This document shows positions 1,450 to 17,765 of a stretch of 64,000 nucleotides of DNA, piece by piece (position 1 is the stretch's first letter; each line of letters begins with the position of its first letter). The stretch lies in the NCBI GenBank assembly GCA_016839765.1, contig JAEOTP010000012.1, positions 1 through 64,000 on the forward strand, given 5' to 3'. The notes beneath the pieces were generated by a model, which did not search any database, had not been told where the DNA came from, and saw only the letters and a list, made by a program, of their open reading frames with translations. Source of the stretch: Promethearchaeota archaeon. GTDB lineage: Archaea; Asgardarchaeota; Lokiarchaeia; Sigyniarchaeales; SOKP01. The translations under genes were made by a program, and so were the position numbers.

Positions 1450-2208
1450 TCACCATCGTATTTTTGGTTTCGAGAATCTATAAAAGATTCCTTTGTATTT
1501 TGTTAAATCTTTAGAGAGATTAATAAGACTTAAGAAATTTATCAAATTTGAGGTATAATCCTTAGATACTGGTCCTAAACATCCTTCACAGGGTATTCCC
1601 TGTTCAATACATATATGATCGCAGCCCTCCCTAGTTATTGGTCCTAAGCATAAAATTCCATTATCTAAAAAGCAATTAGATTTCTCATTAAAAATTGTTA
1701 ACTCATCATTTGATGGATTTAATTTGTTAACTGGTTTTTCAAAAGGAATATTATTATTTCCTCTTAGAGGGCATGATGAGCATAGATTTTTTTCCGATAA
1801 TTTTATTTCTTTATTTTCTATTAATCTTATTAAACAATTTCCTATTAGTTTTAAAGGAGGAGGACAACCAGGAATTATACCATCGATTTGGACGACATCT
1901 GATATTGCACCTGCTTTTTTCTTTTCAGATAAACTTAAAATTCCCCCAAATGCTGCACAAGTACCTAAAGCATATACTTTTTTTGCATTATTTCTAATAT
2001 CTTTTAATAGTTCAATTTGTGAATCCATCGAAATACAACCTTCTATTAAAGCAATATCGCCTTCTTCAATTTTATTCTCATCAGAGATAAAGGGAAAGTA
2101 AGAAAGTTTTATTCTTTCTAAAAACTGAGGAAATATATCACTTGAGATTAATTTAGATATACATCCACTACAGGATGTAAGTGATGCTATTAAGATTTTA
2201 AGTTTCAA
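1450..2208 (-). CDS. mvhG: [NiFe]-hydrogenase small subunit (MvhG/HydD-like)
   Basis: SCSGC, GTCAAFGG, PGCPP, CLGPITREGC, PCEGC; lies between the MvhD-containing gene and the large subunit. Confidence 0.85.
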   Translation of the reverse strand: MKLKILIASLTSCSGCISKLISSDIFPQFLERIKLSYFPFISDENKIEEGDIALIEGCISMDSQIELLKDIRNNAKKVYALGTCAAFGGILSLSEKKKAGAISDVVQIDGIIPGCPPPLKLIGNCLIRLIENKEIKLSEKNLCSSCPLRGNNNIPFEKPVNKLNPSNDELTIFNEKSNCFLDNGILCLGPITREGCDHICIEQGIPCEGCLGPVSKDYTSNLINFLSLINLSKDLTKYKGIFYRFSKPKIRW

Positions 2209-4744
2209 ATCTAATCTCCTCCGTTAATACGTTATAAAATTTATTTATTGCATTTGCAAATTTGGCACCTTCAACCGCATTCAGATTTTCTACTATTATC
2301 CTATTACTTAATCGGGGACCAAATACTTTCTTTAACAGGTTTACTTTTTTCTGAACTTTTTGAATTCCATCGATATATCTGCACGCATCTTTTCTACATC
2401 CAATAACCATTACACCATCAAATCCACACTCAAATGATTTAAGGATAAATTCAGTATCAATACGCCCGGTGCATGGTACTTTAATTATAAACACATTGGG
2501 ATGATAAAATAATTTCTTTAATCCCGCATCATCTGCAGCAGCATAACCACAGGATTTACAGCAAAAAGCAATAATCATTGGCTTTTTATTAAATTTAGAA
2601 AAAATTTCTATTGTTTTAAGTATTTTTTTGGAAGTATCAATATTTAAATCAATAGCATTTGTAGGACACACACTTACACATGATCCACAGCCTTTACATT
2701 TAAATTTATCGATATTTATTTTATCTCCCCCGATTATTATGGCATTATATGGACAAGATACTACGCATAATCCGCACAACCCACACTTTTCTTCATTTAT
2801 TTTAATTCCTGTAAATTCTGATACTAAATAGTCATTTGAAAGAAGATAGATTATTTCTAAAGCTGTTTGATTTGTTGTAGAAATTGTAGATTTATAATTT
2901 AATGGCCCAAAAATTGTACCAACGCCATAAATACCAGATGCTAAAGTTTCTCTACTCATGAAACCATTATCGTCTAAAGAAAAGTCCATGTATTTTCGAA
3001 GACTTTTTAAATCTTTGTTGGGAATATACTTAAGGTTTAATACTATCAAATCACTTAGAAATTCAGTATCATCAGCAACAACATAGTTTATATCTTTATT
3101 ACTTTTAACAGAAATATGATTAGCATAAATAAATCTAGGGTTAGTTGATCTTAATAAAATCTGATCCTTATCATTTAATTTACTCAAATCATAAAAAACA
3201 TTAACTTTACATTTAGCATTTCTTATTTTAATATCCTCAATATATTTTTGTGCTAAAATTTCAGAGTAATCTGAGATTAATTTTGAAGGTCCGACCTCTT
3301 GAACAATAGAAACCGAATTAACTGGTTTCTTATCCGATATTCTTAATAATTTCCCTTCTGTAATACCATCAGAAGATAATATACGCTCAAATTCAGGTGA
3401 AGTAATAATATTATTTTGAGGATTATAATGGTAATCCTTTAAGTTATCACTAAAATCTGCCCCGATAGCTATAACTTTTACACCAACCTTAATTCGGACT
3501 TTTTCTGGTTTTTCATTTAAATTTATTGCATTATTAATACAAGCTCGTTCACAAATCCTGCAATCGAGACAATCTTCAATATCTTCGTGATCAATTAAAG
3601 GGATATATGGATATGAATTCTGAAAAGGGATATAAATAACTTTTCGATATGACAGACCAAAATCGTATTGATTCTTTTTCTCCTTACCACAAACATTAAC
3701 GCATTGTTTACAACCGGTACATTTCTTTTCATCTATATATCGAGGTTTTTTAATTAATTCAATTGTAAAATTTCCCACTTCTCCTGAGATTGTTTCAATT
3801 TCGCTATTTGTAAATATATTGATATTCTTTTCTTTGACTATTTCTCCAATCAATTCTGAAGTGAAACAAATAGAACAATCACCCATCTCAGAGATACGGT
3901 GCCATCTAGCTACTTTACCCCCTAATGTTGGTGATTTTTCAATAAGATATACTTTTATTCCTGCTTTTGATAAATTCAGTGCTAAAGTCATACCTGCAAT
4001 ACCACCCCCTAATATTGCACAAGCTTTCTCAACTTCAACCGTTTTAATTTGAACTTCCTTTTGAAGCTTTACACGTTCAATTCCTGCTTCTATTAATAAT
4101 TCTACTTTTTTTAGAATTAGATCCGCACTAAATTTTTCGAGATTTGAATCATGAACCCAGCAGCATTGCTCCCTAATATTAGCAATTTCTATATTTGTAT
4201 GTTCAATCACATCTTTAAAGATACGTTCAAAAATATGTTGGTGTGTTTTAGGAGAACAAGCTGCAATTACTACTTTATTTAGAAAATTTTGTTTTGCCCA
4301 AGATGTGATTTTATTCAAATTCTTTTCTTGACATAAATTATCAAATATCTTGACAGAAACAACATCATTTAACTTTGCAATATACTTCTCTAATATTTCA
4401 ATATTAATAACATTAGAAATTTCAGTATTACAATCACAGATTATTACTCCTATACGATTTATTATATTTCCTCTTTTATCCAAATATTCTAATTCTTCGC
4501 CTGATAAAATACGTTTGTTTAAACTTATTATATTTAATACTCGTTTACCATCTTCTGTCAAAAAATAAGATTTTTTATCTTTGCTGATCAATGACCCAAG
4601 CTTTTTTAAGTGGAAATTTAATTGCCCCGTTTGGGCTAAACCCAATTTTTCCATTAAATCGGTATAAGGAATGAATCCCTCTCTTTCCAAAAGTAAGAGA
4701 ATCTTTCTACGAAAAGGATGTGATAATATTGAGTAAATATTCAT
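2198..4744 (-). CDS. Fusion of ArsR-like winged HTH, HdrA-like FAD/Fe-S protein (degenerate central region) and MvhD [2Fe-2S] domain
   Basis: N-terminal LSHPFRRKILLLL..GQLNFHLKKL..YFLTEDG; HdrA motifs IICDC, AACSPKTH, NIREQCCWVH, GGGIAG, DCSIC and ferredoxin motifs; C-terminal AFCCKSCGYAAAD..PCTGRID..GCRKDACRY. Confidence 0.85.
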   Translation of the reverse strand: MNIYSILSHPFRRKILLLLEREGFIPYTDLMEKLGLAQTGQLNFHLKKLGSLISKDKKSYFLTEDGKRVLNIISLNKRILSGEELEYLDKRGNIINRIGVIICDCNTEISNVINIEILEKYIAKLNDVVSVKIFDNLCQEKNLNKITSWAKQNFLNKVVIAACSPKTHQHIFERIFKDVIEHTNIEIANIREQCCWVHDSNLEKFSADLILKKVELLIEAGIERVKLQKEVQIKTVEVEKACAILGGGIAGMTLALNLSKAGIKVYLIEKSPTLGGKVARWHRISEMGDCSICFTSELIGEIVKEKNINIFTNSEIETISGEVGNFTIELIKKPRYIDEKKCTGCKQCVNVCGKEKKNQYDFGLSYRKVIYIPFQNSYPYIPLIDHEDIEDCLDCRICERACINNAINLNEKPEKVRIKVGVKVIAIGADFSDNLKDYHYNPQNNIITSPEFERILSSDGITEGKLLRISDKKPVNSVSIVQEVGPSKLISDYSEILAQKYIEDIKIRNAKCKVNVFYDLSKLNDKDQILLRSTNPRFIYANHISVKSNKDINYVVADDTEFLSDLIVLNLKYIPNKDLKSLRKYMDFSLDDNGFMSRETLASGIYGVGTIFGPLNYKSTISTTNQTALEIIYLLSNDYLVSEFTGIKINEEKCGLCGLCVVSCPYNAIIIGGDKINIDKFKCKGCGSCVSVCPTNAIDLNIDTSKKILKTIEIFSKFNKKPMIIAFCCKSCGYAAADDAGLKKLFYHPNVFIIKVPCTGRIDTEFILKSFECGFDGVMVIGCRKDACRYIDGIQKVQKKVNLLKKVFGPRLSNRIIVENLNAVEGAKFANAINKFYNVLTEEIRFET

Positions 4745-7588: not shown

Positions 7589-8476
7589 ATGGGCTATAAA
7601 ATTTTGATGAAAAAAGAATTAGGAAGTAGTGGAACATTATTTGAAATAGAATTAGCTACGCCTTTAATTGCTAAAAAGGCGCGTGCTGGAAATTTCATTT
7701 TAATCAGAATAAATGAAAAAGGAGAGAGGATTCCTTTAACTATTGCTGACTATAATCGAAAAAAAGGAACATTAACGATTGTTTTTCAGGTTATTGGTAA
7801 AACTACAAAATTATTATCAAAATTAGAAGAAGGAAATTTCCTTCTTGATGTTGTTGGGCCTTTAGGAAATGAAATTCATATTAAAAAATTTGATTATCCT
7901 GTGGTAATTATTGGAGGTGGAGTTGGTATTGCTCCTTGTTACCCTCAAGCAAAGGAATTGAAAAAAGTAGGAAACAAGATAATCGCAATTATTGGCGCAA
8001 GGAGTAGCAATTTATTATTTTGGAGAGAAAAAATGGATAAAGTTAGTGATGAGTTAATAATTTGTACAGATGATGGAACCGAAGGGAAAAAAAGCGTAGT
8101 TACTGAACCTCTTAAGGAACTTTTAAAGAGAGAACCTTTAAGTCTAGTTATTTCTATAGGTCCCTTAATTATGATGAAATTTGTAGCTCTAACGACAAAT
8201 GGGTATGAAGGATTACCTAAAGTAAAAACAATGGTTTCTCTAAATACTATTATGATCGATGGTACTGGCATGTGTGGAGGATGCCGATTTTCCACAATAG
8301 ATGGAAAAATATATTTTGCATGTGTGGATGGTCCTGACGTTGATGGTCATATGGTAGATTTTGATAATCTTATAAAGCGTGCTAAAAGATTTACGGCTCA
8401 AGAAAAGGAGAGCATTGAACTCTATGAACATGAATGTGGGGCTGTAGAAAAACTCAAAATGGGAGGTTCATTTTAA
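7589..8476 (+). CDS. nfnA: Nfn small subunit (NfnA/SudB; FAD and [2Fe-2S])
   Basis: GERIPLTIAD, GPLG, GGGVGIAP, MIDGTGMCGGCR, FACVDGP. Confidence 0.9.
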   Translation: MGYKILMKKELGSSGTLFEIELATPLIAKKARAGNFILIRINEKGERIPLTIADYNRKKGTLTIVFQVIGKTTKLLSKLEEGNFLLDVVGPLGNEIHIKKFDYPVVIIGGGVGIAPCYPQAKELKKVGNKIIAIIGARSSNLLFWREKMDKVSDELIICTDDGTEGKKSVVTEPLKELLKREPLSLVISIGPLIMMKFVALTTNGYEGLPKVKTMVSLNTIMIDGTGMCGGCRFSTIDGKIYFACVDGPDVDGHMVDFDNLIKRAKRFTAQEKESIELYEHECGAVEKLKMGGSF

Positions 8477-8477
8477 A

Positions 8478-11264
8478 ATGGAGAATCAAACAACCATAAT
8501 TAAAATTTTATTAGATAATAAACAGAAGATTTTGAAAGCAGCAAAATTCGATGAACCAGAGTTTGATAGCTTAATCTCCAAACTAAATAAAGCTGAAGAG
8601 CAAAGAAAAAAACTATCACAGAAAATTAAGGATATTAGAGAACTTAATATAGAAAAATTAAGTCATGAATTAGGAATTTCGCGTTATAAATTAACATTAA
8701 AGATCGATTACTTAAAAGAATTAGGATTTTTAAAAGCTGTCGGAAAGGAATCACGATTTTTCCAATATTTATTGGATGAATATAGATCTAAGGGTATTTT
8801 TCCTAACGTATCTATTATTAAAGAAAAGAACCTATGTTGCAATTGTGGATTATGCGTTTCTGTATGTCCTTTAAATGCTGTTAAGTATTCTGAGGATACT
8901 TTTGAAGTCATTGAGGAAGATTGTATCAATTGTGGATTATGTTTTGCATGTTGTCCGAGATCATTTTTTCCAATAACTCTCAAATTTATTAAAGAGAATG
9001 AAGATATAAAAACTAAATTTTCTGATCAAATAAATTATTATCGAGAAGTCTATACTGCCCAGACAAACGATAATCAAATAATTGAAGTTGCTCAAGATGG
9101 AGGTATTGTAACAAGCTTATTAAAGACTGCTTTTCAAGTAAATATGATTGATTGTGCTTTGGCTGTTGGATTAGCAAATAAACCACACAAACCAGCACCT
9201 ATCTTCGTTGAAAATGTAGATGATTTATTAAAAACGGCTGGGACAAAATATAGTAATACACCTTCTTTAAAAATTTTACATGAATCTAAAAAATATAAAG
9301 ATATTGCGATAGTGGGGACACCTTGTATGATGGAGGGGCTTAAAAAAATATCCATCTATCCATTTAACGAACCTTTTTATGATAATATCGCTATAAAAAT
9401 TGGATTATTTTGTATGGAATCATTTAATTACTCACAAATTTTAGAGCTGTTAAAAAATGAATTTCAAAAACCTGCTGATGATATTATTAAAATGAATATA
9501 GATAAAGGTAGATTTCTTGTTTATAGTAAAGATGGTACTTCGTTAGATGTTCCTTTAAAAAAAGTCAAAAAGTATGGAAGACTGGGATGTTTTTTCTGTG
9601 ATGATTTGACTGCTGAACAAGCAGATATATCAGTAGGGTCTATTGGTTCTGAACCGGGATGGTCAACTGTTATAATTAGGACTCAAAAAGGTGCTGATCT
9701 ATTTCAAAAAGCATTAGATTTAAAAATAATCGAAAAGAAAGAAATTAAGGAAGATGATAAAAGATTTGTTTATTTAGAACGGATAGCTAAGTCAAAAAAG
9801 AAAACATATAAGGAAGGGCGTAGGCCCAAAATGATTGAACAAGATCCTAAAGAAAGAATAAAAAATTTTGATGAGGTTCCTTTAGGATTAACTGAAGAAA
9901 TGGTGAAATTAGAAGCTCAAAGATGTTTACAATGTGGGAGGCCTTTATGCATTAAAGGGTGTCCAGTAAACATTAATATCCCTGAATTTATTAGATTAAT
10001 CAAATTAGGTAAAAATGCTGATGCATTACATCTAATTAAAAGAAATAATTTATTACCAGCGATTTGTGGAAGAGTTTGTCCTCAAGAAACCCAATGTGAA
10101 GAAAAATGCCTATTAAATTCACTTGGAGAACCTATTTCAATCGGTTATTTAGAAAGGTTTCTTGCTGACTGGGAAAGAAAAAATAAGCTTAAAGAATGTC
10201 CTGACTGTCAACCCTCCAATAATATTAAAGTGGCTGTTATTGGATCTGGACCTGCTGGGTTAACATGTGCGGGCGATCTTGCAATGAAAGGTTATAATGT
10301 TACTCTTTTTGAAGCTTTTCATGCAGGTGGAGGAGTATTGGTCTATGGAATACCTGAATTTAGATTGCCTAAGGAAATTGTTAAAGATGAGATTAAAACT
10401 TTGAAAATGCTTGGTGTTAAGATAAATTATAATACTATTATTGGTAAAATTTTAACTCTAGAAGATTTAAAAGAAGAGGGTTTTAAGGCATTTTTCATAG
10501 GTGTTGGAGCAGGGCTTCCTATGTTCCTAAGAATTCCTGGATTAAGTTTGAATGGTGTACTAACAGCAAATGAATTTCTAACAAGATCTAATTTGATGAA
10601 AGCATATAGATTTCCAGAATATGATACACCAATAAATGTTGGAAAGATAGTTACTGTTATCGGTGGAGGGAATGTTGCTTTAGATTCTGCCCGAACCGCT
10701 CTAAGATTGGGCTCTGATAGAGTTATAATCGTTTATAGACGATCTGAAAAAGAAATGCCAGCAAGACTTGAAGAATACCATCATGCAAAAGAAGAGGGTG
10801 TTGAATTTAAATTTTTAACAAATCCAACACGAATCATTGGTGATGAGAATGATAATGCTATAAAAATGGAGTGTCTTAAAATGAAATTAGGAGAACCAGA
10901 TGATTCAGGAAGGCGAAGACCTATCCCAATTAAGGATTCAGAATTTATAATTGAAACTGATACAATAATACTTGCAATTGGAGCTTTAGCAAATCCCGTT
11001 CTTACAAAATCAATCCCTGATTTAAAATTAAACAAATGGGGTTATATCGAAACTGACACGGGCGGAAGGACGAGTATAGAAGGAGTATATGCTGGAGGAG
11101 ATATAGTAACTGGAAGTGCTACAGTAATCTCTGCTATGGGTGCAGGAAGAATAGCCTCAGCGGCTATAGATAAATATCTTAGAAATAAATTTCTGAGTAA
11201 GGTAGGTTCTATTGAAGTTGAAATAATGAAAATTAAAACAATTAAGAAAGAGCAGATAAAATAA
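8478..11264 (+). CDS. nfnB: Fusion of an HTH-like N-terminus, 2x[4Fe-4S] ferredoxin, FrhB/FdhB (F420-binding) domain and Nfn large subunit (NfnB/SudA/GltD-like)
   Basis: AQDGGIVTSLL, AGTKY, VGTPC, IGLFCMESF and DISVGSIGS (FrhB); RCLQC..GCPV, CGRVCPQETQC, GSGPAGL, GGGNVALD and AGGDIVTG (NfnB). Confidence 0.88.
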   Translation: MENQTTIIKILLDNKQKILKAAKFDEPEFDSLISKLNKAEEQRKKLSQKIKDIRELNIEKLSHELGISRYKLTLKIDYLKELGFLKAVGKESRFFQYLLDEYRSKGIFPNVSIIKEKNLCCNCGLCVSVCPLNAVKYSEDTFEVIEEDCINCGLCFACCPRSFFPITLKFIKENEDIKTKFSDQINYYREVYTAQTNDNQIIEVAQDGGIVTSLLKTAFQVNMIDCALAVGLANKPHKPAPIFVENVDDLLKTAGTKYSNTPSLKILHESKKYKDIAIVGTPCMMEGLKKISIYPFNEPFYDNIAIKIGLFCMESFNYSQILELLKNEFQKPADDIIKMNIDKGRFLVYSKDGTSLDVPLKKVKKYGRLGCFFCDDLTAEQADISVGSIGSEPGWSTVIIRTQKGADLFQKALDLKIIEKKEIKEDDKRFVYLERIAKSKKKTYKEGRRPKMIEQDPKERIKNFDEVPLGLTEEMVKLEAQRCLQCGRPLCIKGCPVNINIPEFIRLIKLGKNADALHLIKRNNLLPAICGRVCPQETQCEEKCLLNSLGEPISIGYLERFLADWERKNKLKECPDCQPSNNIKVAVIGSGPAGLTCAGDLAMKGYNVTLFEAFHAGGGVLVYGIPEFRLPKEIVKDEIKTLKMLGVKINYNTIIGKILTLEDLKEEGFKAFFIGVGAGLPMFLRIPGLSLNGVLTANEFLTRSNLMKAYRFPEYDTPINVGKIVTVIGGGNVALDSARTALRLGSDRVIIVYRRSEKEMPARLEEYHHAKEEGVEFKFLTNPTRIIGDENDNAIKMECLKMKLGEPDDSGRRRPIPIKDSEFIIETDTIILAIGALANPVLTKSIPDLKLNKWGYIETDTGGRTSIEGVYAGGDIVTGSATVISAMGAGRIASAAIDKYLRNKFLSKVGSIEVEIMKIKTIKKEQIK

Positions 11265-13643: not shown

Positions 13644-14801
13644 TTATGTTTCATCATTTGTCAATATCGCTGAAGTAGTTTTCCATGATTTCAATTTGTT
13701 TATCATATTTTGCTCTGTTCTTGTTATTTTTGATTGAGAGTATTGCGTAATTTTTTCTTTCATTTTATTTTTAACGGTGTTATCCATTCTTAAACACTTA
13801 ATTATCCCTGTTTTAATTGCTCTATCAACTATATCCTTTCCTTTTTTAGTTCGAGTTATTACAGTTGTAAATTTATCTTCGGAACCTAATCCTCCAAAAG
13901 AAATATCAGCATAAATGTTAGTAAAATCTTTGCAAACCCCACAAGCGGGGCGCATATAATCAGTTAAACTTTCAAAAGGCACATGAATCTTTTTTTGGGG
14001 CGCTTTATGATTTTTTAATTCAATAATTAAATTTTCCTTAATATTTATTCTCTGAATATTTTTGAATTTAATTTTAAATTGTTTCTCAAATTGTGTCAAT
14101 TTTGTTCTATCAAAGAAAAAATTCTCATAGCAAAATAAACCAAGACAAACTTCTATGTTTTCTGATGGTATTATCCCTAAGCTTTGCATACATCTAATTG
14201 TGTAAATTTGGCAGGGAGTTCCTACAAATGCTAACTTATTGAATTTATAGTGTCTTAATTTAGGTAATGAACTTATATATGTGTGAAATTTCTGCACGGT
14301 ATCTAGTTGTGGAGAAATATCCAATTTTGTACCTGATGCATTGATTAAATCTTGTTTAGTTTTTGCGATAGTTGCCTCTCTAGAGAAAGGTGATTTTGTT
14401 TTTGCTACAATTGCCCCATTAATAATTTTTTTTTCTATTAAGTAATTTATAATTGTGTTTACAACGCCTCCATCTGTCCCATATTTTAAAAATTCTTTAT
14501 CCATAGATTGACATGAATAAATATTATCTACAAAACCCAAAGGCATTAATGAAAAATCTGAAAAATTAAAAGTTTCATTAAGATCTTCATCTAAAACATG
14601 TGTCTGTGGACAAATAAAATAGCATATACTACACTCAAGGCATTTTTCCTTGTTTATGTATTCTGGAGGTGAATTAAGATCCTTAAAGCCAATTACTTCG
14701 TTTTCTATTGAGTTACAAAAACTCACACAGCCACCACATTGTTGACAAATACCGAGTTCATGAACCTCTTTTATTAAATCTTGAAAAACTTTATTTTTCA
14801 T
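13644..14801 (-). CDS. Coenzyme F420 hydrogenase/dehydrogenase beta subunit family (FrhB/FdhB) with ferredoxin N-terminus
   Basis: CQQCGGC, CLECSIC, GTDGGVV, VGTPCQ, LGLFCYENF, CGVCKDF, DISFGGLGS. Confidence 0.88.
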   Translation of the reverse strand: MKNKVFQDLIKEVHELGICQQCGGCVSFCNSIENEVIGFKDLNSPPEYINKEKCLECSICYFICPQTHVLDEDLNETFNFSDFSLMPLGFVDNIYSCQSMDKEFLKYGTDGGVVNTIINYLIEKKIINGAIVAKTKSPFSREATIAKTKQDLINASGTKLDISPQLDTVQKFHTYISSLPKLRHYKFNKLAFVGTPCQIYTIRCMQSLGIIPSENIEVCLGLFCYENFFFDRTKLTQFEKQFKIKFKNIQRINIKENLIIELKNHKAPQKKIHVPFESLTDYMRPACGVCKDFTNIYADISFGGLGSEDKFTTVITRTKKGKDIVDRAIKTGIIKCLRMDNTVKNKMKEKITQYSQSKITRTEQNMINKLKSWKTTSAILTNDET

Positions 14802-15061: not shown

Positions 15062-15235
15062 AATTTATTAAAATTTCTCTTATCATATTTTTTAAATTTA
15101 ATTTAAACCATCTTTTTATTGGAATAGGAGATTAAAAAACATTTTTTGCTTTTAGCAAATTTTTTGTTCTTTCAATTTCATAAATTTGCTAAATTACCTA
15201 TCACTAGTTGGTGATGTTTTAAATAGGTGAATTAA

Positions 15236-17272
15236 ATGTCTGAAATACAGACCAAAGTGAGAATCGGAGTTTATATATGTAGATGAGGAGTTAATATTAG
15301 TGCTTCAATCGATTGTAATCTTATTAGAGATTATGTTGAAGCACTACCAAACGTTTTTGTTGCTAAAGTAAATGATTTTACTTGTAGTGATCCAGGACAA
15401 AATATTATCAAAAACGATATTTTAGAATTAGACTTAAATCGGGTAGTTGTTGCAGCTTGTACACCAAAAATTCATGAATCCACCTACCGATTAGTTTTAG
15501 CTCAAGCAGGATTAAGCCCTTATTACTTCCAAATGGTTAATCTTCGCGAACATTGCTCATTTACTTACTCCAGAAATAAGAGAAGCATTACTGAAAAAGC
15601 TATAAGGTTAGTGCAAGCAGGGATAAATCGTGCCAGAGAATTAGAAATTATACCTTATAAAAAGATATCAGTAGAAAAATCGGTATTAATTATCGGTGCT
15701 GGTATTGCAGGGATGAATGCTGCATTAGACTTAGCAAATCATGGAATAAATGCAAATTTAGTCGAAAAGGAAGCCACAATTGGCGGAAAAATGGCACAAT
15801 TAGATCGAATATATCCTACAGACGATTGTGCTATATGAGTTCTAGCGCCTATTATGGTTAGTGCTTCAAAACATCCAAATATAAAATTATTTACCTATAG
15901 TGAAGTTATTAAATTCGAGGGCATCCCAGGAAATTATAATGTTAAAATACACAAGAAACCTCGTTTTATTAATGAAAATAAGTGTACTGGTTGTGGATTA
16001 TGTACGACTAAATGTCCAATAAAAGTACCTAACGAATTTAACAGAGGTATTGGGGAACAAAACGCGATTTACATACCTTTTCCTCAAGCAGTGCCCAGAA
16101 TTGCTCTAATTGATAAGAGTGTATGTATAGAATGTAAAAATTGTCAAAAATGTTGTCCCACAGAAGCTATTGAATTAGATCAAACCTCAGAATATATCGA
16201 TTTAAAAGTTGGTGCGGTAATTATTGCCACAGGTTGGGATGAATATCCAATTATGAAAAAAAATGAATATAAATATGGTATTTATCCAGATGTTATTACT
16301 CAAATAGAGTTAGAACGTATGTTAAGTCCAGTTGGACCAACCGGTGGTCAAGTGTATAGAATTTCTGATGGAAAAATCCCCAAAACAGTAGCTATGATTC
16401 AATGTGTGGGTTCAAGATCCTTAAAAGGGAATCCCTATTGCTCAGGAGTATGTTGTAATGTTGCACTTAAAAATGCTCAATTGTTAAAGCAAGAATATCC
16501 AGATATAGAAATTGTTATCTTTTATATAGACATGCGGACATGGGATAAAGGCAATGAAGAATATTATAGAAAAGCGAGAAAAGCGGGAATAATGATGATT
16601 CGTGGAAAAGTAGGAGACATTCGAGAAGATACTAGCATAAAGAAAATAAAACTTACAGCTTCTTCAACTTTAACCAATGATTTCATTACCATGAATACCG
16701 ATTTAGTTGTATTATCTACAGGTATGGTCCCTTCTAAAAAAGCGGCACAAATTATTGAGACATTAGGTATAGCTAAAGATATGAATGGGTTTTTAAGTGA
16801 AGTTCATGGATGCCTAAAACCTCAAGAGACAAATAATTTAGGTATTTATATATGCGGCTGTGCTACTGGACCTAAAAATATCCCTTATTCAGTATCAACT
16901 GCATTAGCTGCAGCAAGTAAAGCATCTATTTTGCTTTCTAAAGATACAATAACTCAAGAATTAATCATCGTTGAAGTAAATGAAAATCTATGTATGGGTT
17001 GCCATAGATGTGAAAAACTATGTAATTTTAAGGCAATAAAAATTAATGGAGAGAATATAGCTGAAGTAGACGACTTAAAATGTAAAGGTTGCGGAGTTTG
17101 TGTTACATCATGTCCCGCTCGAGCAATTGACCTTAAGTATTACAGAGATAAACAAATTATTGAAGAGATAAAAGGGATTTGTAGTACTGAACTTGAATAT
17201 AAGGAAGAATTTATTGAATCTATTGAACTTATTTGGAAAAAGATTGAAGCTTTAGCTCCTTATCAAACATAA
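15236..17272 (+). CDS. hdrA: Heterodisulfide reductase subunit A, probable selenoprotein with two Sec (U17, U201), 678 aa
   Basis: SD AGGTGA then ATG at 15236. One frame reads MSEIQTKVRIGVYICR-TGA(15284)-GVNI...YPTDDCAI-TGA(15836)-VLAPIMVS. Both TGAs occupy Cys positions of HdrA motifs (CxCG, DCxxC). ORF-track pieces 15533..15838 and 15854..17272 are in this frame. Confidence 0.9.
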
Positions 17273-17279
17273 TCTGAAA

Positions 17280-17536
17280 ATGAATGATCCTCTTAAAAAA
17301 ATGTTAGTTGAGAGGTAACTAACCCATAGCATGGGTTTTCAGAAAACTATAAAATAATAAATGGTATGAATTTGTATCATCATGAGCTAGAAAATGAAGT
17401 AAGGTTTAAAGTCGGAGAAGCATGGATGATGAATATCATCAATATTGCCAGAAATTATGGTCATAACTATTCGAAAATTGCATTCGGATTAGCAAGTAAG
17501 ATGATATTGGGAGAGGAAATTAAAATTTCTAATTAA
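17280..17536 (+). pseudogene. Deletion relic of a paralogous copy of the 5731 gene and the mtd-like gene
   Basis: NDPLKKMLVER, then 17366-17536 ENEVRFKVGEAWMMNII..AFGLASKMILGEEIKISN*. These match 5731 NDPLKMLIKKR and EDEVRYKVREAWMMMNIL, and the 6506 C-terminus AFKLACRILFGEEIKITV*. Confidence 0.75.
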
Positions 17537-17765
17537 TTTTTTTTTAAATTTTTAAAATTATTTTCAAGAGATATTTTAAAAACACATCTATTCCTTGATT
17601 TAGCCTTCTGAGGATTGACTTCATGAATGATATTAATATTTCCATTAATGGAGATAAGTCTATATAGAATTTCTAAAACCTTTTAACCTCTTTTCTTCAA
17701 AGAATTTTATTATTCTTATTCAAAAAGCATCCTAAATTATTATGAAAAAGAACTAATTAACTTGT

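Follow-up and report, generated by a model that had tools for sequence, protein, structure and literature searches.

The hdrA frame and its in-frame UGA codons

The window analysed here is a 64,000-nt stretch (positions 1 to 64,000 of contig JAEOTP010000012.1, GenBank assembly GCA_016839765.1) from a Promethearchaeota archaeon of the Lokiarchaeia (Sigyniarchaeales; SOKP01). The assembly comprises 3.3 Mb in 96 contigs, with 30% G+C and 96% completeness. The coding sequence at 15236-17272 (+), hdrA, contains two in-frame UGA codons. We read it as an intact selenoprotein gene for an HdrA-type electron-bifurcating subunit, with a probability of about 93%. In this reading, both UGAs encode selenocysteine (Sec) through one Lokiarchaeota-type selenocysteine insertion sequence (lokiSECIS), and the gene belongs to a sub-clade that has lost vhuD and is coupled to an frhB-like gene. 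The coding sequence is supported both by its full-length alignment to solved HdrA chains and by the ratio of nonsynonymous to synonymous substitution rates (dN/dS).

Translation of the locus gives a single frame of 678 codons closed by TAA. The frame contains exactly two internal stops, both TGA. UGA 1 (15284-15286, +) is codon 17 (Sec17) and lies in the context GVYICR-U-GVNI, where it forms a CxU motif in the N-terminal cluster domain. UGA 2 (15836-15838, +) is codon 201 (Sec201) and lies in the context DDCAI-U-VLAP, where it forms a CxxU motif at the canonical HdrA Sec site. The tryptic peptide at residue 17 would read U-GVNISASIDCNLIR, and that at residue 201 would read IYPTDDCAI-U-VLAPIMVSASK. 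The initial annotation had described this frame, with TGA at 15284 and 15836, as missed by the track of open reading frames (ORFs). Translation confirms the double-TGA frame, and genetic code table 11 recovers it only in pieces, which include 15533-15838 and 15854-17272. A Shine-Dalgarno-like GGTGA motif (15226-15230, +) is found 5 nt ahead of the ATG at 15236 and therefore supports a start upstream of UGA 1.

The frame has a Pyr_redox_2/FAD (flavin adenine dinucleotide) Rossmann region and two Fer4 (ferredoxin) regions in Pfam. Residues 8-651 align without large gaps to the HdrA chains 9sfi_A (E 2e-208) and 5odc_A (E 1.5e-205), and also to 8rvu and 7bkb. The four-domain HdrA architecture is present, with an N-terminal cluster domain, a thioredoxin-reductase-like FAD domain, an inserted ferredoxin domain and, at the C-terminus, another ferredoxin domain. 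The best NCBIfam match is HdrA2, at 808 bits, which is under the 1100-bit cut-off because the model takes in the C-terminal MvhD part.

The two UGA codons correspond exactly to Cys columns that are invariant in HdrA. In the 5ODC alignment, Cys13 falls opposite residue 17 and Cys197 opposite residue 201. The 9SFI chain has an unknown residue, X, at the second of these columns, and we take it to be selenocysteine. In the 2026 electron cryo-microscopy (cryo-EM) study of M. maripaludis, Sec197 has density that suggests a Se-S bond (PMC13518236). The proposed match of the CxxU site to methanococcal HdrA is thus upheld by the alignment.

There are eight full-length HdrA paralogs in this genome. Four of them have Cys at both Sec columns and four have TGA there. 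The other TGA-containing copies are located on contigs C59, C35 and C43, and the copy on C43 contains four TGAs (columns 17, 50, 75 and 201). One of the Cys-type paralogs is an HTH(DUF7347)-HdrA-MvhD fusion encoded at 2198-4744 (-) of the window, with Cys in ICDC and DCSIC at the two columns, as had been noted from the sequence. Columns 15, 17, 50 and 75 are invariant as Cys or Sec in all eight paralogs, and Cys107 is not invariant.

All three segments of hdrA are under purifying selection when compared with orthologs at 93%, 93% and 77% identity. The dN/dS is 0.07-0.10 between the UGAs (codons 18-200), 0.09-0.16 in codons 202-678 and 0.14-0.26 in the short, 16-codon N-terminal segment. Both TGAs are kept in orthologs at 74-93% identity, although dS reaches 1.5. 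In a search of 40 related genomes, most close HdrA homologs contain in-frame TGAs, mostly two to four, and the two TGAs of this gene recur in dozens of relatives. Gene calls from metagenomes that treat TGA as Trp, which come from independent contigs, place W at exactly the two Sec columns. Elsewhere in the genome TGA is an ordinary stop. It closes 254 of 1930 ORFs of at least 200 aa (13%), and only 41 of 1445 long frames delimited by TAA or TAG are split by TGA.

In public protein collections, the family appears in two forms. The first consists of fragments of 472 or 459 aa that begin after the second UGA and are named '4Fe-4S binding protein'. The second consists of full-length products with Trp at both Sec columns, apparently from TGA=Trp calls on short contigs.

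If hdrA were a decaying pseudogene, both TGAs would be nonsense mutations. The division of the frame into three pieces under table 11 is compatible with such decay, as is the presence in public annotations of only the 472-aa C-terminal piece. However, both stops are TGA at Cys columns, and TGA recurs there in three paralogs and in the diverged orthologs. The dN/dS is low before, between and after the TGAs (0.07-0.26), and a conserved SECIS is located 3' of the gene. Decay is extremely improbable on this evidence, and the initial view that the stops are not random nonsense mutations is borne out. More broadly, a pseudogene, a sequencing error and global recoding are excluded for practical purposes because the TGAs are conserved, the gene is under purifying selection and TGA is a normal stop.

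Another possibility is that only UGA 201 is recoded and that the N-terminal UGA reflects a false start, in which case the product would be an HdrA without its N-terminal domain. UGA 1 comes just 16 codons after the start, its distance to the SECIS is 2 kb, and one ortholog has Gly at codon 17. The next in-frame ATG after UGA 1, however, is codon 100, which is within the conserved N-terminal domain. Conservation extends to residues 1-16 (dN/dS 0.14-0.26), GGTGA precedes them, residues 18-99 align with solved HdrA and the CxU column is TGA throughout the clade. Published Loki HdrA carries up to four Sec, at five possible positions (PMC4989117). A downstream start is exceedingly unlikely given these features, and a frame that includes UGA 1 is preferred.

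The lokiSECIS and the selenocysteine machinery

A three-helix element immediately follows hdrA (17273-17343, +) and is identified as a lokiSECIS by its fold, a genome pattern scan, covariation and a consensus fold. Its closing stem (17273-17279/17337-17343) covaries and has the consensus CYGAA/UUCRG. The AUGA core (17284-17287) begins 12 nt after the hdrA TAA. It is followed by an upper stem of nine positions (17288-17296/17308-17316), which comprise eight standard pairs and a U-U, and by an A-rich apical loop of 11 nt, AAAAAUGUUAG (17297-17307; AAAAA..AG). After the upper stem come AA (17317-17318) and, in the consensus fold, a 3' hairpin (17322-17327/17331-17336). The folding energy is -18.8 kcal/mol (z -3.5 to -3.7). 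The core is 2000 nt from UGA 1 and 1448 nt from UGA 2.

The published lokiSECIS format consists of AUGA, a 9-bp stem, an 11-nt loop that opens with five A and closes with (A)G, and GA or AA (PMC4989117). An AUGA_AA variant is noted in PMC11227280. The element at 17284-17318 has this format. A scan of both strands of the 3.3-Mb genome returns six matches to the format, four of which have the loop AAAAAUnnUAG. All four of these are located within approximately 25 nt after ORFs with in-frame TGA, namely this hdrA, vhuU (C46), vhuD (C59) and a short GGGUPCP ORF (C12). In an alignment of 16 elements from the genus, 94% of stem cells are paired and six of nine pairs show compensatory changes. None of 500 shuffles reaches this score, and slid registers are only 33-61% paired.

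No SECIS family is found by Rfam, either at gathering thresholds over the whole window or at permissive E-values on 17230-17700. Weak matches to isrJ, MicF and snoRNAs (E 0.5-10) are rejected as chance. Curated models apparently do not include the lokiSECIS.

The C12 element, with the loop AAAAAUAAUAG, is located at approximately 3550-3880 (+), together with the preceding ORF of about 70 codons. This ORF is hydrophobic over an N-terminal stretch, carries a GGG-U-PCP motif close to its end and could encode a small membrane-anchored UxxC selenoprotein.

A coding-region hairpin 14 nt after UGA 1 (15298-15346, +) folds at -21.5 kcal/mol (z -5.8). It was considered as a bacterial-type SECIS or Sec-redefinition element and rejected, as it is weakened in a 93% ortholog and absent in all others. 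It is probably a fortuitous or recent local feature. Downstream of UGA 2 there is no unusual fold (z -0.4), and no conserved local hairpin is found after either UGA. A single 3' SECIS is shared by every UGA of an mRNA in this lineage (PMC4989117). The single 3' element most likely serves both UGAs, because no conserved structure follows either of them locally. The initial annotation had called for a second recoding event for the N-terminal CxU on the same mRNA, and this is not needed if one 3' SECIS suffices, as published (PMC4989117). A second hairpin, proposed at 17617-17660, folds no better than shuffles (z -0.7) and is likewise not supported.

Between the SECIS and the glutamate dehydrogenase gene there is a 56-codon ORF (17366-17536, +). 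It is probably not a gene because it has no family match, in Pfam, and no counterpart in the 93% ortholog.

The genome encodes the components for Sec synthesis and insertion. The tRNA-Sec gene (62 bits, anticodon TCA) is located 75 nt upstream of the SepSecS gene, which scores 475 bits and is above its cut-off. A PSTK-like kinase gene has a full-length match to TIGR03574, and the SelD gene carries one in-frame TGA (Sec-SelD). The EFSec gene appears to be divided between two contig ends, with a fragment at C75:2-1114 (+), for which selB is the best family, and an N-terminal piece at C34:1-123 (-). The N-terminal piece shares contig C34 with tRNA-Sec and SepSecS, and the three genes are therefore probably clustered. 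Two other GTPases are rejected as EFSec. The 517-aa protein on C67, which matches selB, is aIF2-gamma with an HHH domain, and the protein on C57 is EF-1-alpha. A check for this machinery, which had been suggested for the genome, thus recovers tRNA-Sec, SepSecS, the PSTK-like kinase, Sec-SelD and EFSec in fragments.

UGA could instead be read as Trp, Gly or Cys, through a changed code or near-cognate read-through. The W placed at both sites of some homologs by metagenome callers is in line with this. In this genome, however, 13% of long ORFs terminate in TGA, and no internal TGA is present in the window's other long ORFs. The in-frame TGAs sit only on Cys columns, and tRNA-Sec, the Sec synthesis genes and a SECIS are present. 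Decoding as an amino acid other than Sec is very unlikely in this setting. The interpretation of hdrA as a double selenoprotein gene is supported by the Sec machinery, the correspondence of U and Cys columns and the lokiSECIS. Both UGAs would be decoded as Sec by archaeal/eukaryote-type machinery (tRNA-Sec, PSTK, SepSecS, SelD and EFSec), and decoding would be directed by the single eukaryote-like lokiSECIS 3' of hdrA.

The missing vhuD and the frhB-like neighbour

In Asgard archaea, hdrA is described as always being followed by vhuD/frhD, with a single SECIS after vhuD only (PMC4989117; PMC11227280). This paired layout is present on C59, where the hdrA is 74% identical, and in most congeners. 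In the paired type, HdrA is 665-666 aa long, vhuD is located 11-43 nt downstream and the SECIS is 442-458 nt after the hdrA stop. The locus studied here is of a different, stand-alone type. It occurs in 7 of the 25 genus genomes searched (G000, G022, G013, G011, G008, G002 and G014), where HdrA is 675-678 aa long and 12-21 nt separate the hdrA stop from the SECIS. No VhuD match is found downstream of hdrA at the window locus or at the six orthologous loci, and the tandem vhuD of the paired type is thus absent. No description of a vhuD-less hdrA-SECIS arrangement was found in the searchable literature texts. The many 472-aa fragments in public collections, which are cut at UGA 2, suggest that the stand-alone type is widespread.

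The longer C-terminus of the stand-alone type resembles part of VhuD. Residues 656-676 (17201-17263, +) form a VhuD-like tail (BLASTP E 6e-4; hhalign E 2.4e-5, probability 75%), which matches positions 116-136 of the 144 in VhuD, its C-terminal helix, in hhalign. At the DNA level, two blocks are colinear with the paired loci, the 3' part of hdrA to 17209 and a SECIS block at 17265-17344. Between these blocks there are 407 nt fewer than in the paired loci. The tail is a probable remnant of a deleted vhuD that was fused in frame. A deletion of about 0.4 kb in an hdrA-vhuD tandem would have removed the VhuD Fe-S core, joined the last VhuD helix to HdrA and brought the SECIS to a position just 3' of hdrA. 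On the evidence of approximately 21 residues and synteny, this history is the simplest explanation.

The stand-alone hdrA genes are accompanied by an frhB-like gene in six of seven loci, and at the remaining one (L023) the sequence extends just 97 nt upstream. In the window, this gene (13644-14801, -) encodes 385 aa with FrhB_FdhB_N and FrhB_FdhB_C domains in Pfam and is divergent from hdrA. The frhB-like gene is inverted in the same way in G022. In G011, G008, G002 and G014 (L024-L027), it is located directly upstream of hdrA in the same orientation, 70-90 nt away. From this distribution, a local inversion seems to have broken up a two-gene operon and left its genes divergent. Because unrelated genes flank the pair in G008, the unit that is conserved consists of frhB-like, Sec-hdrA and SECIS. 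In the paired type, a 30%-identical frhB-like paralog follows the SECIS.

Genes for hdrBC are not found beside hdrA at the window locus or in G008, where adjacent genes were inspected and no genome-wide search was made. At the window locus, no hydrogenase gene is found next to hdrA. The frhB-like product is a probable partner subunit of HdrA, judging from gene order. Because the gene is coupled to frhB-like, the enzyme is probably an FrhB-like/HdrA complex and not hydrogenase-linked. We infer a flavin-based bifurcating or confurcating module of FrhB-like and HdrA subunits. The FrhB-like subunit would handle a two-electron donor or acceptor, in place of a hydrogenase acting via VhuD.

Bifurcation-type modules abound in the window's first 17 kb. 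In addition to the HTH-HdrA-MvhD fusion described above, these comprise a DHODB-type Fe-S subunit (7589-8476, +) and a 928-aa fusion of FrhB with GltD/Pyr_redox_2 (8478-11264, +).

Proposed roles of the selenocysteines and relation to known systems

Sec201 would be part of a CxxU pair adjoining the bifurcating FAD, and Sec17 would be one of the four invariant Cys in the domain with the mobile 'shuttle' cluster. In the conserved CxxC/U pair, residue 201 takes the second position. In a crystal structure, Cys197 is a partner-protomer ligand of the N-terminal [4Fe-4S] cluster (PMC9012536). Newer cryo-EM work regards the two residues as a separate redox pair, a dynamic relay that links the entry cluster to FAD and either binds an unknown ligand (PMC13580544) or forms a Se-S bond (PMC13518236). 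For the N-domain cysteines that might ligate cluster HA3, the readable literature describes only the role of Cys197 and a Cys202/Cys205 pair. Residue 17 very probably belongs to the coordination sphere of the N-terminal cluster, because it is one of the four invariant Cys of the N-terminal domain. The initial placement of both UGAs at Fe-S Cys positions thus stands in part. It agrees with Cys197 as a ligand in one paper (PMC9012536) and with the invariance of residue 17, but in the newer cryo-EM work the CxxC/U motif appears as a separate redox pair.

A more specific scheme combines these positions with the history of the locus, and we offer it tentatively and consider it doubtful as a whole. 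In this scheme, Sec17 of one protomer and Sec201 of its partner would contact the same N-terminal [4Fe-4S] 'shuttle' cluster (HA3), giving mixed S/Se ligation. The lokiSECIS would have been captured by hdrA through the vhuD deletion, giving a Se-dependent FrhB-like/HdrA enzyme without the MvhD/VhuD electron-entry subunit.

Several observations weigh against the reading of hdrA as an intact double-Sec gene of a vhuD-deleted, frhB-coupled sub-clade. The PSTK match is under the NCBIfam equivalog cut-off (167 vs 290 bits), and for EFSec there are only fragments, which lie at contig ends (C75 and C34). The upper stem of the SECIS opens with a U-U mismatch and is followed by AA in place of GA. Reports on Lokiarchaeia hdrA/frhD include both the U-U opening and the AA variant, and U-A occupies the stem-opening position in the G022 and G013 orthologs. 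The ortholog in G013 (C71, locus L023; 93% identity) has GGA (Gly) at codon 17. It retains TGA at codon 201 and an intact SECIS, and all others have TGA or Cys at codon 17. The Gly may be an error in the metagenome-assembled genome or a sign that Sec17 is dispensable. The homology of the tail to VhuD extends over approximately 21 residues (hhalign probability 75%), and the evidence for the FrhB partnership is synteny. Finally, we infer the actual insertion of selenium in this gene and organism from sequence data.

The multi-Sec HdrA of Lokiarchaeota is a published system (Mariotti et al. 2016, PMC4989117), which was extended by Huang et al. 2024 (PMC11227280). The gene in the window resembles Lokiarchaeota/Asgard multi-Sec HdrA in having several UGAs at conserved Cys columns, always including the site near 200, and one eukaryote-like 3' SECIS that serves UGAs up to about 2 kb away, with the same Sec machinery. 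It differs in that vhuD is absent here and in six congeners, with a VhuD-like tail in its place. Methanococcal Sec-HdrA (the VhuD-linked Hdr of M. maripaludis, 9SFI, and M. jannaschii) aligns over its full length and has Sec at the CxxU column (Sec197) by the FAD domain. The methanococcal protein, which belongs to the CoM-S-S-CoB reductase of methanogenesis, contains one Sec and has a SECIS of the classical archaeal kind. The HdrA in the window differs in its eukaryote-like SECIS and in a further Sec, located in the N-terminal domain. The host is not known to be a methanogen. The Cys-type HdrA of MvhADG-HdrABC (M. wolfeii/thermolithotrophicus, 5ODC) shares the four-domain architecture over residues 8-648. 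Unlike the HdrA in the window, it has Cys13 and Cys197 at the Sec columns and is complexed with MvhD. Here the MvhD/VhuD partner gene is deleted and the conserved neighbour is frhB-like. Eukaryotic SelP and SelL also have several UGAs in one mRNA and a distal 3' SECIS of the kink-turn type with an AUGA core and an A-rich apical loop. The gene in the window differs from these in its archaeal host and its shorter SECIS stem.

The core finding, a double-Sec Asgard HdrA with a eukaryote-like SECIS, is already published, and it therefore serves mostly as an annotation correction. The entries to correct are the 472-aa '4Fe-4S binding protein' fragment and the products with Trp at the Sec sites. What is new is the vhuD-less sub-clade that retains the SECIS, the VhuD-derived tail and the frhB-like partner. 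A conserved exception stands against the rule that vhuD always accompanies hdrA, and in it the SECIS serves only hdrA. This exception resembles a natural deletion experiment, in which the VhuD Fe-S core is dispensable for one HdrA lineage. The locus is simple, with two genes, and in a heterologous archaeal reporter it could be used to examine how the lokiSECIS works and what Sec contributes at the N-terminal cluster domain.

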